From an uncultured Leptospirales bacterium (GTDB lineage: Bacteria > Spirochaetota > UBA4802 > UBA5550): DNA of 64,000 bases. Numbering within the stretch: the stretch's first letter is position 1; the number at the start of each line of letters is the position of its first letter. The notes under the pieces were generated by a model, which did not search any database, was not told the origin of the DNA, and saw only the letters and a list, made by a program, of their open reading frames with translations. The position numbers and the translations under genes are program-made. Below are positions 3-7,530 of the stretch, one piece after another. Location: contig CAZYBU010000008.1 of the NCBI GenBank assembly GCA_964645775.1, forward strand, positions 2,957 to 66,956. Reading direction: 5' to 3'.

Positions 3-197
3 TACCTTACCGATAACTATCGCCAACTCAGATGGGAAGTACGGGGAGGCAAATACAGTATCGATTTTCTTGCCGGTACCGGCAGGCTCCGGCAGTCACT
101 GTTAGAAGACAAACCGTGGGACGAATTCCTGGAGAGCATTGAAAATAAGGTAAAGGAATATGACAGAAGGGCGGAGCGCTACAGGGTCTATCCCTGA
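3..197 (+). CDS. 3' end of an unidentified gene (partial, continues upstream of window)
   Basis: Open frame from window edge to TGA at 195-197 (..ENKVKEYDRRAERYRVYP*). Convergent with the minus-strand gene ending at 204. No recognisable domain. Confidence 0.3.
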   Translation, partial: YLTDNYRQLRWEVRGGKYSIDFLAGTGRLRQSLLEDKPWDEFLESIENKVKEYDRRAERYRVYP

Positions 198-203
198 TAG
201 AGA

Positions 204-2639
204 TCACATCTTAAGAAAATCCATGTACTTCCGGATCTCCTCCGGATAATTTCCATTTTCGTCCTGGTACTTCTTAAATTTTCGTTCATAGGCCGTGTAG
301 TTACGTGCGCTTATGTTCTTAAAGCGCGTCGCTATCTGGGTATAGGCCGGCATCTGTTCAAGCTGTTCCCTGACCTCTTTTCTAAAGGGAACATTCTTGA
401 AAAAGATTTCCCTGGCAACCGTGTTCATCTTCATGATACCGTCTTTTTCATAGAAAAGCCAGGTTATGTAATCATCGGCGAAACGATCCCTGTTGGTCCG
501 CAGGCTCTTGAATCGCTGCTTGATCCGTTCCTTGGCTTCCTGGGAGAGACGGGAGTTCTTCTTGTAGGTATTTACGTAATCGAAGTATTCGCCCGTAACG
601 CCTCCCTCGATAGGGTCGGCCCACATTCCCCCTTTCATAGTCCGATTCAACTCCCATCTGAATGAGGCTATCGCTTCCGCCAGGCTCTTCTTCAAATCGC
701 CCATGAAGAAGATCGGGACAAATATCCTTCCCCGGCTCCTTTTATTGGTACCTATCAGTTCCTGCCACATAAATGTCTTCGTACCAAATATGGGAAGCAG
801 GATAAAATAAGGAATGACCTCTTCCTGGATAATTTCACGGGCGTCCCCCATCTTAAGAACGGTCTCCCTGTAAAAAGCGGAATAATCGAGTTCAATGATC
901 TCATTTACGGTTTCTGAGAGATTCCGTTTCGATATGTAAAAGTTGTTCAGCGATCCCTTCATGTTATAGGAATTGAGGATAGGGAAAGCCGTGGCCGTTG
1001 ATCCGGAACAGAGGGCTGCAACGCTTGTCAGCCTCTGGTTTACTTCGAACATGACCTTATCCATGGGATCGCTGGTGTCGCTGCTTACCTTTCCCCGGTT
1101 ATGCTTTTCCTGTTCCCTGAGATACTGCTCGTAATTCTGCCCCATCTCAGTAATACTGGGCTCTTCCTCCCGCATATAGATCTTATCAAGAAATTCCAAC
1201 TCGGTAATGACCCAATCATAGGGAACATGTTCTTTCTGCCGCGCCAGCTCATTCAGTTCGACAAGCTGGTCCTCATCAAGCAACTCATCGTCAAGAAAAC
1301 CGTAGTTCATCATCAGGCGAACAACACGGGGTACCGTGGATTCGCTCTTACTCCTTACGTAGGTCTGCTTAAAAATTTCCCAGTAGCTTTTACTTATCTG
1401 CCTGCGAACCTTCCTGGACTCGGAATCGGTGTTAAAAGGATTCTCCATCTCCTTAAAATCATTAAGCAGCTTGACCATCTTCTTCTGCTCTTCCTTGTCA
1501 ATAAGGGCAAACTCGAAGATCTGACCCATGGCCTTTTTCAGCTGGCTCTGGGAACTGCTTCCTGCCGCTTTCGCGGCTTCAACGGAGGCCTGTCTCTCCT
1601 GTTGTGTGTCCAGTTGTTCCTTATCATGTATGCTTCTTAGCTGAGCCACTCCCGGGTATACCTTCTCAAGACTTTTCCCGAAGAGCTCTCTGTGAAAGGA
1701 ATCTATCTTATCAACCACAGCAAGAAGATTCTTCAGAAAATCTGCGGAGAGCCGGCCACTCCCCATCCATTCATCATATCCCCTCATGTCGACAAGGTAC
1801 TGGCTCCAGCTCGCTTCGCTTCCAAACATTCTCTCAAGGATCGTTTCAACTTCATCCTGGAACGCGATCATCCGTTCGTAAATACCGTACAGGTCATCTG
1901 TCATCGAATCGTAGGCGTTCAGCGCTATCTCAGGACTCCCTTTTAGGACGTGCTTTAGTATCTCCGGATTCAGTTTCAGTAATCCGCGAACAACACTCAG
2001 AAATTTCAGGTTAGTGGCCGGCCCGGAAAAAGCATCGGAAAGATCATAATCCCTGTTAAGGAGATTGGAGTTATCCGCGATAACGAAATTTATGTCTATA
2101 CTGGAGGGAAACGCTCCCCCTTTTTCACGGAAGGTTTCGTGAAGCCGCGTGGCCTCTTCATCCAGGTTGCCGGCAGCGTTACTAAGAGACAGCTCCCGAT
2201 AGATAAGGTGCAGATTATCATTAACACGGGCGGTATGCTGGTAAAGTTTGATAGTTCTGTTAAGGTCCGTTATTGCCTGATTAATGCGGCTAAATATATT
2301 TTTAAGCAGGGTAGCGGTCTGAGAAATGTCGGCCACGACGATCCCTTTAAGACCTCCCTTTCTCAGGGGATATTTAACAACCTGCGCCGTTTCAAGAGCG
2401 CGGAGAGATACCTTTCTCGGTTCCGTGAAAAGACGGGTAAAACCGGCAAGAACGCTTTTACCCTTTATGATTCCGACCCTGCGACTCCGTGAGATAATGA
2501 TCGTTGGGTCCATACCTTCAAATTCATCGGGGGCGATGAGTATCTCCAGGGTCCCGGAATGCAAAAGATAGAGGCCGTCCGGTTGCGTTCCCTGTGAATA
2601 GAGGAGCTGGCCTGCCTTTAATTGACGGGATTCTGCCAT
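204..2639 (-). CDS. large cyclic-nucleotide-binding-domain protein, C-terminal ~650 aa of unknown function
   Basis: 811-aa ORF with ATG start and AAGGAA SD. N-terminus has a CAP/cNMP-binding-like signature (GQLLYSQGTQPDGLYLLHSGTLEIL). Rest unrecognised. Start lies 3 nt after the HNH gene stop. Confidence 0.7.
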   Translation of the reverse strand: MAESRQLKAGQLLYSQGTQPDGLYLLHSGTLEILIAPDEFEGMDPTIIISRSRRVGIIKGKSVLAGFTRLFTEPRKVSLRALETAQVVKYPLRKGGLKGIVVADISQTATLLKNIFSRINQAITDLNRTIKLYQHTARVNDNLHLIYRELSLSNAAGNLDEEATRLHETFREKGGAFPSSIDINFVIADNSNLLNRDYDLSDAFSGPATNLKFLSVVRGLLKLNPEILKHVLKGSPEIALNAYDSMTDDLYGIYERMIAFQDEVETILERMFGSEASWSQYLVDMRGYDEWMGSGRLSADFLKNLLAVVDKIDSFHRELFGKSLEKVYPGVAQLRSIHDKEQLDTQQERQASVEAAKAAGSSSQSQLKKAMGQIFEFALIDKEEQKKMVKLLNDFKEMENPFNTDSESRKVRRQISKSYWEIFKQTYVRSKSESTVPRVVRLMMNYGFLDDELLDEDQLVELNELARQKEHVPYDWVITELEFLDKIYMREEEPSITEMGQNYEQYLREQEKHNRGKVSSDTSDPMDKVMFEVNQRLTSVAALCSGSTATAFPILNSYNMKGSLNNFYISKRNLSETVNEIIELDYSAFYRETVLKMGDAREIIQEEVIPYFILLPIFGTKTFMWQELIGTNKRSRGRIFVPIFFMGDLKKSLAEAIASFRWELNRTMKGGMWADPIEGGVTGEYFDYVNTYKKNSRLSQEAKERIKQRFKSLRTNRDRFADDYITWLFYEKDGIMKMNTVAREIFFKNVPFRKEVREQLEQMPAYTQIATRFKNISARNYTAYERKFKKYQDENGNYPEEIRKYMDFLKM

Positions 2640-2642
2640 CTA

Positions 2643-2990
2643 TCATTCCTTATCATTATCAGTATCCTTTTTCAGGCGCTCCAGGTGTTCGTCCCATTCA
2701 TGGGGCAGAAGGTATTTCTTCCTGTTATTGCATTCCTTACAGGCGGGCACCAGGTTCTCTCGATCAGAAGCCCCACCCCGGGAAAGGGGAATGCGGTGGT
2801 CCATGGTGAGCTCCGTGGGAGAAACCCTGCTTTTGCAATAAAAACATTCTCCCCGGGATATCTTTTTTCTCCACCAGGCCGTTTTCCTCAGGTCCCGGGC
2901 TTTTTGCTTTTCCCGACTGATACGACCTGACTCCCGGTCGAGTCCTCCTGAAATTTTTCGATATCCTTTACAAGATTTTCCTGATGCCAT
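2643..2990 (-). CDS. HNH endonuclease
   Basis: CFYCKSRVSPTELTMDHRIPLSRGG...LVPACKECNNRKK shows an HNH motif with zinc-finger cysteines. The ORF-track start at 3035 is a TTG. ATG at 2990 (MASGKSCKGYRK) has a GGAG SD and is preferred. Confidence 0.7.
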   Translation of the reverse strand: MASGKSCKGYRKISGGLDRESGRISREKQKARDLRKTAWWRKKISRGECFYCKSRVSPTELTMDHRIPLSRGGASDRENLVPACKECNNRKKYLLPHEWDEHLERLKKDTDNDKE

Positions 2991-3052
2991 TATATACTCC
3001 AAACTATGGCTACCGGAGTGGATTATCTTTGTCAACGATTAATGTCCGGATA

Positions 3053-3988
3053 TCATTCACCGAGCATCTCCCCTTCTGCCAGGCGCGCTCCATTTATAAA
3101 GGCCGGAACCTCCATCCGTCTCTTTCCCTGCTGCTGCAATTCGATTATTTCAAGATCATCATCTCCGGTTGCAGCCACAAGTCTGCCCTTTTCCTCAGGA
3201 TAAAGTGTTCCCGGTTCCGTTCCGGAGCGCCCCCCCGCGCACGGTCCTGTTTTCCATATCTTCAGGGTCTGACCCCGGAAAAGGGTCCAGGCGCCCGGCG
3301 CAGGATTACATCCCCGGACCAGGTTATGAATGTCCCGGGCGGGCCGGGTCCAGTCAATCTTTGCCAGGTCCGTGGAGAGCTTGCCGCAGTACGTTGCCCT
3401 GGATTCGTCCTGAGGTTCAGGAGTAAAACCGGGATCCCGGATTCTCTCCAGGGAAAGATCGAGCAGTTCTCCTCCGAGGGGCAGGACCTTTTCGTATAAT
3501 TCACCGGCCGTTATTTTATCATCAAGGGGGATCTTTTCCCGGGCAACGATGTCCCCGGCATCCATCCGTTCATTGATCTTCTGCACGGTCACCCCGGTCA
3601 CCTTCTCGCCGTTTATGAGCACCCAGGGAATGGGAGCTGCGCCTCTATAAGCCGGAAGAAGGGAAGGATGAAGATTCAGGGTCCCGAGAGGCGGTAGATT
3701 AAAAATTGAAGGCGGTATGATTTTTCCATAGGCGACCACAACACAGGCCTCAGCGCCGGAACCGGCCAGTGTGGCCTGAAACTCCGGGTCTTTCAGGTCG
3801 GCAGGATGGAACACCTGTATGCCGAGATCGCGTGCCGCCTCCTTCGCGGCACAGGGCCTGGTCGACCGGCCGCGCCCCGCCGGTCTGTCTTCAGGTGTCA
3901 CGGCAAAAAGAATGTCATGCCCTTTTTCATGAAGATATCGAAGATTCCACGCCGCGATGTGCGGAGTACCGAAAAAACCGATCCGCAT
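3053..3988 (-). CDS. fmt: methionyl-tRNA formyltransferase
   Basis: MRIGFFGTP N-terminus and formyltransferase core. Stop of def abuts the start (classic def-fmt arrangement). Confidence 0.9.
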   Translation of the reverse strand: MRIGFFGTPHIAAWNLRYLHEKGHDILFAVTPEDRPAGRGRSTRPCAAKEAARDLGIQVFHPADLKDPEFQATLAGSGAEACVVVAYGKIIPPSIFNLPPLGTLNLHPSLLPAYRGAAPIPWVLINGEKVTGVTVQKINERMDAGDIVAREKIPLDDKITAGELYEKVLPLGGELLDLSLERIRDPGFTPEPQDESRATYCGKLSTDLAKIDWTRPARDIHNLVRGCNPAPGAWTLFRGQTLKIWKTGPCAGGRSGTEPGTLYPEEKGRLVAATGDDDLEIIELQQQGKRRMEVPAFINGARLAEGEMLGE

Positions 3989-3989
3989 T

Positions 3990-4499
3990 TTATTCCCGGT
4001 TCATTCGCTTGATCTTCTTGAGCTGAGGATTCAGCTCCCTGCGCATATAATCTTCAAGGTGATCGACAAAGACGACACCATTGAGATGGTCAATCTCGTG
4101 CTGAAGCACACGGGCGTACAAACCTCCAGCATCAAACTCGAGTTCGTTTCCGTCTACGGTCACCGCTCTGACATGGATCTCGGAGGGACGCACGATATCT
4201 TCCATGATTCCGGGAAGAGAGAGGCATCCTTCTTCATAGGGTTCCTCCTCTTCAGAAACTTTCGTAATCTCCGGGTTGATAAGCACCACAGGCTTCATGC
4301 CGTCGTATTCTTCAATATCTATGACGAGCATGCGGAGTCCCTCGTCAACCTGGGGCGCGGCCAGACCGATCCCACGGGAACCGTACATGACGTTAAACAT
4401 CTCATCAGAAAGCTGTTTAATCTGGCCATTTATATCCTGTATGGGTTTTGCAACCCGCTTAAGGGTTTCATTTCCATAATATACAAGCTGATGTGACAT
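3990..4499 (-). CDS. def: peptide deformylase
   Basis: Motifs GIGLAAPQV, EGCLSLPG and HEIDHLNG. 169 aa. Confidence 0.9.
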   Translation of the reverse strand: MSHQLVYYGNETLKRVAKPIQDINGQIKQLSDEMFNVMYGSRGIGLAAPQVDEGLRMLVIDIEEYDGMKPVVLINPEITKVSEEEEPYEEGCLSLPGIMEDIVRPSEIHVRAVTVDGNELEFDAGGLYARVLQHEIDHLNGVVFVDHLEDYMRRELNPQLKKIKRMNRE

Positions 4500-4870: not shown

Positions 4871-4945
4871 GGGGTGTTAGCTCAGTTTGGTTAGAGTACC
4901 TGCCTGTCACGCAGGGGGTCGCGAGTTCGAGTCTCGTACACCCCG
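4871..4945 (+). tRNA. tRNA-Asp (anticodon GTC)
   Basis: Cloverleaf read by eye. Acceptor GGGGTGT/ACACCCC, anticodon stem CCTGC/GCAGG with loop CTGTCAC, T-arm GCGAG-TTCGAGT-CTCGT. No encoded CCA. Confidence 0.85.
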
Positions 4946-4952
4946 CATCCAG

Positions 4953-5112: not shown

Positions 5113-5799
5113 ATGGGAGAGAACGAAGCAAGAAAAGAAAAACGGGCCCCCCTTCCTACAGCGCTGATGGGCGCTTTGCTCCTCTTTATCCTCTCTGGTA
5201 TCATACTTGCCATACTTATTCTTGCCGGTTCAGAGAGGGCTCTCGTATATCTGGAAGACTCGAGCATACGTTACGCAGAATCATTCACCGTCATGGGAGG
5301 CCAACTGGCGGGCCGTTTAGACGGCAGAGAATACAGGGACCGCGCAAAGGCCCTGAAAGGGGAAGAACGGACGTTATCCTTGAAATTTTTCTCCCTTGAA
5401 AAAATCACCCGGATCGAGATAATCCATCCTGCCGACAAAAAAGAAGAAGAGAAAGATATTGATGTACCCGCACATTTCCTGGGGACCTGGAAAGTAAAGA
5501 CCTCGGGCCACGCCGGGTACCTCTATCTCTGGAAGAAAGAAGGAAGAGTCCGCGGTTCCATTAAATTCCCCGGCTGGGCCAGGGGAGTGGCCGAACCCCT
5601 TAAGGGACTGTCCATCAAAAACAATTCAATCTACTTTGTTCGTTCCGCCACTTCCTCCGCCGAACTGAGAAGGCTCGGTGCCAGCTCATACTTTGTCCAG
5701 AAATACTACGGAAACTATCTTCAGGGCGGCAGAATCATCAAGGGATACTACATCTCAAACGGTGTGCGTAATGTCTGGAGAGCTGAAAAGGTACGCTAG
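5113..5799 (+). CDS. hypothetical membrane-anchored protein
   Basis: 228 aa. N-terminal hydrophobic helix (LMGALLLFILSGIILAILILAG). No recognisable catalytic motifs. Confidence 0.5.
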   Translation: MGENEARKEKRAPLPTALMGALLLFILSGIILAILILAGSERALVYLEDSSIRYAESFTVMGGQLAGRLDGREYRDRAKALKGEERTLSLKFFSLEKITRIEIIHPADKKEEEKDIDVPAHFLGTWKVKTSGHAGYLYLWKKEGRVRGSIKFPGWARGVAEPLKGLSIKNNSIYFVRSATSSAELRRLGASSYFVQKYYGNYLQGGRIIKGYYISNGVRNVWRAEKVR

Positions 5800-5928: not shown

Positions 5929-7530
5929 ATGATACATACGCTGGAAAGATACTTCCTGTCGCGGCTGGATGAAAAGAACATCGGAATCTACCTGAAAGCC
6001 AGGACCTTCATGTTCTTCAGTCTCATCATCAGTATGGTAATTTTTACACTTTTCATCGCCCTGAACGTCATTGTTCAGCGAGAATTCTTTTCCACTCTAA
6101 ATATTATGCTTTTTGTAATATTCAGTGTCTCCCTTGGAAGCCTCGTGGCCCTTAAGGCGGGCAAATATTACATGGCGGTATTACTTATCCTTATCCCATC
6201 CATGGGAGGATACGCCCTCTATATGTTCTCCGGAAATTTCGTCTATGATGAAGCGGTCATCTTCTCTCCCTATCATCTGATGATATTCATCCTTTTCAGC
6301 GCCCTCTTCGCCAACTGGCAGATAACCCTGACTGTGACGACCCTTGCCATAGGAACAAGTATTTCCAGCATCGTCACATCGGACCGGATCAATCCCGATA
6401 TCATCCCGGTTACCCTTATCAACATGACTTTTGGCATGATAGTTATCGGTATAATCTCCATCCTGATACACAGGATCAATGAACGGGCCAGGCGGCGCCT
6501 CGAGGAGGAGCTGGAGAACCGGAAAGAATATGAACGCACCCTGCAGTTTATCGATTCCATCGAGAGCATATCGGAGCGACTCAGGGACTCTTCCCAGGCC
6601 ATGAGTGACACATCTGCCAACTTTTCGGAAAATGCCCAGAACCAGGCCGCCTCCACGGAGGAGGTGTCCGCCACGGTAGAAGAGATCTCCGCCGTGTCAG
6701 AGCGTGTAGATAACAGCACCTCTCTGCAGAAGACAACCATTCGGGATCTGGTGAGCCGCCTTCAGCAACTGAAGGATACCACATCGGAGATGAAGGACCG
6801 GGTAGAGAGCTCCCTCAGTCGGTCAAACGAAGTCTCGGAGATAACCCGGCAGGGATCGGCATCCATGGAAGAGATGAACGGCCGGATGAAATCCATAAGT
6901 GACCGTTCAGATGAGATGACGGGTATTATCTCGATAATAAATGACATATCGGATCAGATAAACCTTCTTTCCCTGAACGCCTCCATTGAGGCAGCCCGGG
7001 CCGGGGAACAGGGTAGAGGTTTCGCGGTTGTTGCCGACGAGATATCAAAACTGGCGGACCAGACATCCACGAGCGTTCGAAGCATCGCGGACCTGATCAA
7101 AGCCTCGGAGGAGGAGGTCACCTCCGGGAACAGGATCGTGCGGGAGAGCGTGGAGGCTAACCGGAACATTCTTGCCGGAGTCCAGGAGATTGGGCAGGAG
7201 GTGGAATCCCTGGCCAGGACCATGCAGAGTCAGGACGAAGTAACCGTGGAGGTCATCCGTCTGGGTCAGGATGTCAATGTCCGTTCAGAGGAGATAAGCA
7301 CGGCAACAGGCGAGCAGAAGAACGCGGCCCAGGAGATCGTTCGAACCGTTTCCGACATAAGTGAGCTGACACAGGAGAATGCCTCGGGTGCGGAACAGAT
7401 GGCCGGAAGCGCGGAAAGCCTGGCAACCATTGCCGCGGACCTGGACCATCGCCTGGATGAGTTCCAGAATGGCCTGAAAGAACGCCAGGGAGAAGCGGAG
7501 AAAGAAACTGAGAAAGAGGAACAGGCCTGA
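5929..7530 (+). CDS. methyl-accepting chemotaxis protein
   Basis: About 6 N-terminal TM helices. MCP signalling-domain core [42 protein letters not shown]. Confidence 0.85.

Follow-up and report, generated by a model that had tools for sequence, protein, structure and literature searches.

In the DNA of an uncultured Leptospirales bacterium (GTDB lineage Spirochaetota; UBA4802; UBA5550), the translation genes def and fmt are followed on the same strand by a small HNH endonuclease gene and then by a gene for an 811-residue protein, hereafter the large protein, whose N terminus carries a cyclic-nucleotide-binding (CNB) fold. The stretch of 64,000 nucleotides (nt) that holds them, positions 2,957 to 66,956 of contig CAZYBU010000008.1 in assembly GCA_964645775.1, is referred to here as the window, and all four genes occupy its minus strand. 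The first, def (3990-4499), encodes a 169-residue peptide deformylase (PF01327, E 3.7e-49; TIGR00079, 170 bits), and one nucleotide separates its stop from the start of fmt (3053-3988), which encodes a 311-residue methionyl-tRNA formyltransferase (PF00551 and PF02911; TIGR00460, 255 bits against a cut-off of 201.5). A 62-nt spacer (2991-3052), in which a GGAG can be read 8 nt before the next ATG, leads to the gene of a 115-residue, single-domain HNH (H-N-N) endonuclease of the Gmet_0936 type (2643-2990; ATG at 2990, stop TGA at 2643-2645). Only 3 nt (TAG, 2640-2642) lie between that stop and the ATG of the large gene at 2639 (204-2639; stop at 204-206), whose AGGA ribosome-binding motif falls within the 3' end of the HNH gene. 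The HNH frame, mechanically called, reaches back to a TTG at 3035; its homologs are 115-124 residues long, and the ATG at 2990 was taken as the start.

Pfam and NCBIfam identify def, fmt and the HNH gene unambiguously, and since all four genes have many conserved homologs they are real genes rather than chance open reading frames (ORFs). By the six-frame ORF list the operon comprises these four genes only and ends after the large gene. The fmt-HNH spacer holds no minus-strand promoter or terminator consensus, and scans for promoters and terminators returned what shuffled sequence would be expected to give. An earlier, preliminary description of this DNA had set out the gene order, the strand and the gaps of 62 and 3 nt, and all of these coordinates and spacings hold.

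What marks out this otherwise ordinary housekeeping neighborhood is the constancy of its last two genes. A synteny scan of one genome per GTDB species, in which the neighbors in related loci were scored by tblastn with the four window proteins, yielded 80 loci, all from Spirochaetota bins and many of them labeled Leptospirales, across which large-protein identity runs from 38 to 57%. At every one of the 75 loci having at least 350 nt of upstream sequence, an HNH gene lies directly upstream of the large gene on the same strand. The def-fmt genes were found upstream at 49 of the 63 loci having at least 2.5 kb of upstream sequence, directly adjacent at 43 and about 2 kb away at 6, and the HNH-large pair stands without them at the remaining 14; in one such example, a TPR gene and a hypothetical gene lie upstream. 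Downstream of the pair, the genes vary among a convergent namZ, a putative lipoprotein gene and a GHKL-type ATPase gene. Because the neighbors change on both sides, the pair is the only invariant unit. The preliminary description had named universal synteny of the pair with def-fmt as a finding that would tell against a signal-activated nuclease system, and with 49 of 63 loci this is largely what we find.

Several observations bear on how the locus has been inherited. Across species, large-protein identity follows def identity (Spearman rho 0.68, p 4e-9), and a large protein that diverges in step with def is what vertical descent would lead us to expect. GC content and its third-codon-position equivalent, GC3, are unremarkable in all four genes relative to the window mean of 52.3%, a repeat scan around the locus detected neither element boundaries nor flanking repeats suggestive of insertion, and a scan of viral contigs returned no relatives of the large protein. 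We favor, and consider reasonably probable, an account in which the locus is a vertically inherited chromosomal operon, a lineage-specific extension of def-fmt in uncultured Spirochaetota that encodes an HNH nickase and a CNB protein resembling a one-component sensor, the HNH protein being its probable partner. A conserved lineage-specific protein appended to def-fmt was one of two possibilities raised in the preliminary description, and it is the one that the synteny and inheritance data support. As the large gene in this lineage alone is always directly 3' of the HNH gene, and often translationally coupled to it, the two products are at least co-expressed and probably work together. Apparent HNH-large fusions at five loci (gaps of about -2430) were considered and rejected, as translation reveals an in-frame stop, three codons and then an ATG.

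A rival reading holds that the HNH and large proteins are functionally unrelated neighbors, their adjacency kept by descent and by shared transcription behind def-fmt; we judge this somewhat unlikely, albeit far from negligible, and several points tell in its favor and against a partnership. The two genes overlap at some loci and stand as much as about 390 nt apart at others, the median being about 90-130 nt, and spacers of 100-390 nt are common, such that translational coupling is not universal. Both families also occur apart. HNH homologs neighbor alaS in Calditerrivibrio and polysaccharide-export genes in Thermodesulfatator, where no large gene was seen beside them, and relatives of the large protein at or below 31% identity lack an HNH neighbor in the eight other contexts examined, mostly housekeeping, so their shared core clearly functions without HNH. 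Moreover, adjacency within one lineage can persist by inheritance alone, the probable functional link between the two proteins is drawn from gene neighborhood, and the core carries no assigned activity, leaving its role as an output domain putative. Against the notion of unrelated neighbors, all 75 species keep adjacency and orientation, even where large-protein identity is as low as 38%, and the outer neighbors on both sides are exchanged: def-fmt is lost or displaced at 20 of 63 loci, and namZ, lipoprotein or GHKL genes alternate downstream. In addition, at about one-third of loci the two genes overlap or are no more than 12 nt apart.

The HNH protein is the better understood of the two. It matches PF01844 at 53.3 bits (E 3e-14; cut-off 21.4), and its residues 23-110 align without gaps, over 88 residues, to chain A of PDB 4H9D, the structure of Gmet_0936 from Geobacter metallireducens (E 5.9e-35). 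Structure determination and mutagenesis defined the zinc ligands of Gmet_0936 as C38, C41, C73 and C76 and its active site as D53, H54, N68 and N77 (PMC3765158); at the offset of +11 given by the alignment, every one of these is present in the window protein, as C49, C52, C84 and C87 and as D64, H65, N79 and N88. Loss of the catalytic His and Asn, which the preliminary description had entertained, therefore does not apply, since the residues are intact. The two proteins belong to the same size class and share an identical CxxC...CxxC zinc ribbon and D-H...N...N catalytic set. They differ in that the window protein has a longer basic N-terminal tail and an activity that is predicted from sequence, and in that an 811-residue protein is always encoded 3' of the HNH gene in the window lineage, an arrangement not reported for Geobacter.

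Gmet_0936 itself is reported to nick DNA weakly, in a Mn2+-dependent manner, and to favor depurinated (abasic-site) DNA, and a role in repair has been suggested (PMC3765158). By analogy with this weak nickase, the window HNH protein may serve in DNA repair or processing. What Gmet_0936 does in the cell has been an open question since 2013, and the strict HNH-large pairing is the first hint from gene context about either partner. The small HNH family is highly conserved across several phyla, with more than 2,373 clusters of small homologs, the best-scoring 120 of which share about 56-72% identity with the window protein; named homologs come from Spirochaetota, Thermodesulfobacteria, Calditerrivibrio and Nitrospirae.

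For the large protein, which is predicted to be cytoplasmic, the sole Pfam or NCBIfam match is PF00027 (cNMP_binding) over residues 5-92, at 29.1 bits against a cut-off of 27.5, in agreement with the preliminary description, which had named an N-terminal domain for binding cyclic nucleotide monophosphates (cNMP) as the only recognizable part. The full-length AlphaFold2 (AF2) model has a mean predicted local distance difference test score (pLDDT) of 79.6 and a predicted template modeling score (pTM) of 0.47. When searched with Foldseek, this model matched only CNB proteins (FNR, CLP, CRP and NtcA; E about 1e-5, probability 1.0), and the matches covered the barrel and the helix only. A family-wide profile recovered PKG, PKA and CRP from the PDB with E values down to 4e-14, aligning CRP residues 21-156, and the Pfam CNB domain recurs in 39 of 43 and 45 of 58 diverse family members (84 of 101). 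Taken together, the Foldseek and profile matches establish that the CNB fold and the CRP-like C-helix are real.

The protein can accordingly be divided into a CNB-fold beta-barrel with a degenerate phosphate-binding cassette (residues 1-95; 2355-2639), a single long helix equivalent to the C-helix of CRP (residues 105-150; 2190-2327, from DSSP on the AF2 model), a poorly conserved, all-helical middle region (residues 157-348; 1596-2171), a polar linker of variable length that is predicted to be disordered, with pLDDT below 50 and gap-rich alignment columns (residues 349-365; 1545-1595), and a C-terminal core (residues 366-811; 207-1544). In the model, the helix at residues 105-150 is a likely dimerization or signal-transmitting helix. 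The middle region matched only designed helical repeats in the PDB. The N-terminal eight-stranded barrel followed by a long C-helix, and the sensor-plus-output architecture this suggests, recall CRP/FNR, NtcA, CLP, PKA-R and Bd1971. Unlike those proteins, the large protein has neither a helix-turn-helix (HTH) domain nor a known output domain and instead contains about 650 residues with no database match; no HTH family was found in it by Pfam or NCBIfam, and its C terminus is unrelated to CRP/FNR transcription factors.

In CNB domains, cAMP or cGMP is contacted by a phosphate-binding cassette (F-G-E ... R-[ST]-A), for which the E. coli CRP sequence and the roles of its residues provide the reference. 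Where CRP has G-E, the window protein has G66-F67; the Arg aligned with CRP R82 varies within the clade, and the invariant R80 corresponds to CRP R87. Motif counts found the canonical cassette (GE...R[STNA]A) in none of 23 close relatives and in 4 of 127 distant ones. To judge by these residues, the cassette that binds the phosphate of cyclic AMP (cAMP) or cyclic GMP (cGMP) is absent in the window clade, and a few relatives may still bind cNMP. With the cassette Glu and Arg missing, the sensor probably binds some other ligand, or none, much as is the case for those CNB-family members that bind ligands other than cNMP. A Pfam CNB match cannot here be read as a sign that cAMP or cGMP is sensed, and with the cassette residues lost "nucleotide-sensing" is not a safe inference for the large protein.

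This bears directly on the other possibility raised in the preliminary description, that of a signal-activated nuclease system. Here, the CNB domain would sense a nucleotide signal and license the HNH protein to cut DNA in defense. A CNB-fold domain encoded 3 nt from an intact HNH nuclease invites such a reading, as do weak HNH matches to the PADLOC models PDC-M01B and PtuB (E 5e-7 to 1e-3), but those matches cover the generic HNH motif alone, as do the HNH matches in PHROG, and the large protein has no PADLOC match at all. Nor does the operon supply a signal: the ORF list, Pfam, NCBIfam and PADLOC disclosed no cyclase, CD-NTase, Cas10 or TIR synthase and no SAVED or CARF-type sensor within it. 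Add to this the missing cassette, a locus fixed beside core chromosomal genes in 75 species and diverging in step with def, and a family widespread in settings that lack an HNH neighbor, and we regard the defense reading as largely refuted already and very improbable.

Comparison with known systems points the same way. Septu PtuA/PtuB, retron-associated HNH proteins, cyclic-oligonucleotide-based antiphage signaling systems (CBASS) and type III CRISPR effector nucleases resemble the present locus in setting a small HNH gene beside a large partner and in the nucleotide-binding type of fold in that partner. In Septu, however, an ABC/AAA-type ATPase with a Walker A motif fills the partner's place, whereas the large protein has no ATPase motif; and in contrast to CBASS, type III CRISPR and Thoeris-like systems, the locus has no SAVED or CARF domain and no signal synthase, and it is core-genomic and vertically inherited rather than patchy or mobile. 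Mobile-element matches to the family dissolve on inspection as well, the "phage" ones being mislabeled Clostridia chromosome and the "plasmid" ones non-mobilizable Leptospira replicons, both described below. A plausible-looking false positive for nucleotide-activated nuclease defense is thereby removed.

The C-terminal core defines the family. Modeled alone with AF2 (residues 365-811, from a 65-sequence alignment) it gives a pLDDT of 93.9 and a pTM of 0.91, with helices that lead into a five-stranded sheet (590-645), after which a long helix (649-672) precedes a helical bundle. Confidently foldable as it is, the family is not covered by any model in Pfam, NCBIfam, PADLOC or PHROG and lacks a neighbor in the PDB: no Pfam family falls on the core among 101 members, sequence-profile searches of the PDB gave no relatives, and Foldseek returned nothing significant (best E 0.47 in the PDB and 0.54 in BFVD). 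Isolated matches to Alpha-E (PF04168) and TcaA_2nd, each in one of 43 members and not repeated in 58 further members, were set aside as noise, and the retron-IA/HNH complex chains that appear in the PDB list for the core are meaningless (probability at most 0.02; root-mean-square deviation 14-31 Å).

Residues that are invariant or nearly so family-wide include P494, S495, E532, D585, R591, Q626, R638, R661, W662, E663, W673, Y685, D687 and E731. The best-conserved signature by motif count is R661-W-E-L-N-R666 (642-659), in the helix that follows the sheet: RWExx[RK] is present in 137 of 150 members, as against 1 of 150 each for HExxH and Walker A. The window protein has no HExxH, no Walker A (G-x4-GK[ST]) and no ATPase Pfam match. 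The core represents a new family for which no model exists, and many of its invariant residues are polar (E532, D585, R591, Q626, R638, R661, E663, D687 and E731).

One candidate for what the core might be comes from its structural near misses. The top Foldseek matches, non-significant though they are, repeatedly include zincins (anthrax lethal factor, botulinum light chain, ACE and collagenase H), as well as a phage "lethal factor" and "peptidase". On this basis, the core could be a zincin-like (thermolysin-type) fold that has shed its zinc histidines (HExxH to WExx[R/K]), perhaps a metal-independent hydrolase or pseudo-peptidase that acts on nascent or N-terminal peptides alongside def, whose operon it shares. 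The likeness to zincins is one of topology only, from the sheet through a long helix, bearing an invariant Glu one turn in and within xExx[RK], to the helical bundle. However, the scores are poor (E at least 0.47, probability at most 0.21; TM scores of 0.1-0.2 for PDB matches and 0.21/0.41 for the phage match), none of the structural scores is significant, sequence similarity is absent, HExxH is found in 1 of 150 members, and distant relatives are not linked to def. The model's order of sheet, helix and bundle, together with the conserved Glu, is compatible with a histidine-less zincin derivative, which we offer as a lead, not a result, and consider a long shot.

How far the family extends was approached from several directions. 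A word-indexed search with the large protein found 25 homologs at 43-60% identity and one copy 99% identical; close full-length homologs are 810-826 residues long, and those with a source name are Spirochaetota metagenome bins. The 99% identical copy resides on one 11-kb Logan contig. Among GTDB species representatives, the best large-protein identity is about 52-57%, and the organism has no close relative there. An exhaustive profile search recovered 747 cluster representatives (clustered at 50% identity), 387 of them below 1e-30. Many of the 747 clusters match profile positions of about 360-820 only, and distant members match the C-terminal core alone; the core (about 450 residues) is the constant part of a broad family whose N-terminal part varies. 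A profile search built from distant members returned nothing but the query itself.

Cluster look-ups gave as names only "Spirochaetota bacterium" and one "Clostridiales bacterium", and one cluster at 90% identity has 1,157 members, the genes lying between coaBC and rhodanese/rlmL. Human-fecal contigs labeled "Bacteriophage sp." carry copies 26-29% identical to the large protein. For one of them, MT835844.1 ("UNVERIFIED: Bacteriophage sp.", 16.7 kb, human fecal virome), a phage origin was rejected, as SpoVAA, SpoVAD, TrmO and GH3 are encoded on it and identify chromosomal DNA of spore-forming Clostridia; it also encodes a RelA/SpoT-like protein and IS605 OrfB/TnpB. The family therefore reaches well beyond the window lineage, to Spirochaetota at large and to spore-forming Clostridia.

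Leptospira interrogans provides a further example. On its 350-kb second replicon (NZ_CP020413.2), the 707-residue hypothetical protein WP_000465640.1 (locus L095, 5230-7353) is 25% identical to the large protein over the C-terminal 440 residues, the motif FRWEMER included; its N terminus is hydrophobic, replaces the CNB domain and gives no CNB match in Pfam. About 2.3 kb upstream of its gene holds no annotated gene and no long ORF. The plasmid-database matches are non-mobilizable Leptospira interrogans replicons of 350-394 kb, which we take to be chromosome II. Hence, the family takes in a hypothetical protein of a pathogen as well as abundant human-gut Clostridia members, and our literature searches found no description either of the family or of its pairing with HNH. 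Cyclic-nucleotide signaling genes accompany a family member in a single context among those examined: at locus L089 (7622-11284), genes for a CHASE2 adenylate/guanylate cyclase and a GAF-HD phosphohydrolase come after that of P0152, a relative at 31% identity.

Returning to the favored account of a vertically inherited def-fmt extension, its working would run as follows. The def and fmt genes are ordinary. The large protein would be soluble, probably dimerizing through the CRP-like long helix, and built in the manner of a one-component signaling protein, in which an N-terminal CNB-fold sensor, probably responsive to a ligand other than cAMP or cGMP or to none, acts through a helical transmitter on a C-terminal output of about 450 residues. 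A bolder proposal, which we put forward as speculative and improbable, is that the core has the fold of an enzyme or effector not described before, possibly derived from a zincin that lost its histidines and relying on the Glu of RWExx[R/K], and that this core is common to Spirochaetota and Clostridia and fitted with interchangeable sensors; here it would have been recruited to work under ligand control with a Gmet_0936-type HNH nickase, the two proteins making up a new module for nucleic-acid repair or processing that is co-expressed with def-fmt.

The surroundings of the pair merit brief description. In the window, the 3' end of a convergent namZ (exo-beta-N-acetylmuramidase; 3-200, plus strand; NamZ_C, E 1.3e-6) comes within a few bases of the large-gene stop, and a convergent namZ likewise lies 3' of the pair at 22 related loci. 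In most relatives (56 loci), the pair has on its 3' side a conserved gene of about 222 codons whose product matches no Pfam family and carries a signal sequence like those of lipoproteins (for example, L066, 9055-9720, and L003, 8462-9157), a place taken in the window by namZ. One subclade (L072, L074, L075 and about 15 others) instead has a gene for a 272-residue GHKL-type ATPase-like protein about 16 nt 3' of the large gene (for example, L075, 7530-8348; HATPase_c, E 3e-5, just below the Pfam cut-off), the product of which could be a third partner there.

An inverted repeat of 29 nt, 79% complementary, flanks the large gene (117-145 and 2668-2696), one arm within namZ and the other within the 3' end of the HNH gene. 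As the two arms code, on opposite strands, for a WDE.LE peptide, the repeat is probably due to chance. On the far side of the operon, the 370-nt region upstream of def contains a tRNA-Asp (GTC) gene on the opposite strand (4871-4946, plus strand), the only RNA family that an Rfam scan detected in the 64-kb window. Between this tRNA gene and a gene for a methyl-accepting chemotaxis protein (5929-7530) lies a 228-residue ORF (5113-5799, plus strand) with no Pfam match and a hydrophobic N-terminal segment.

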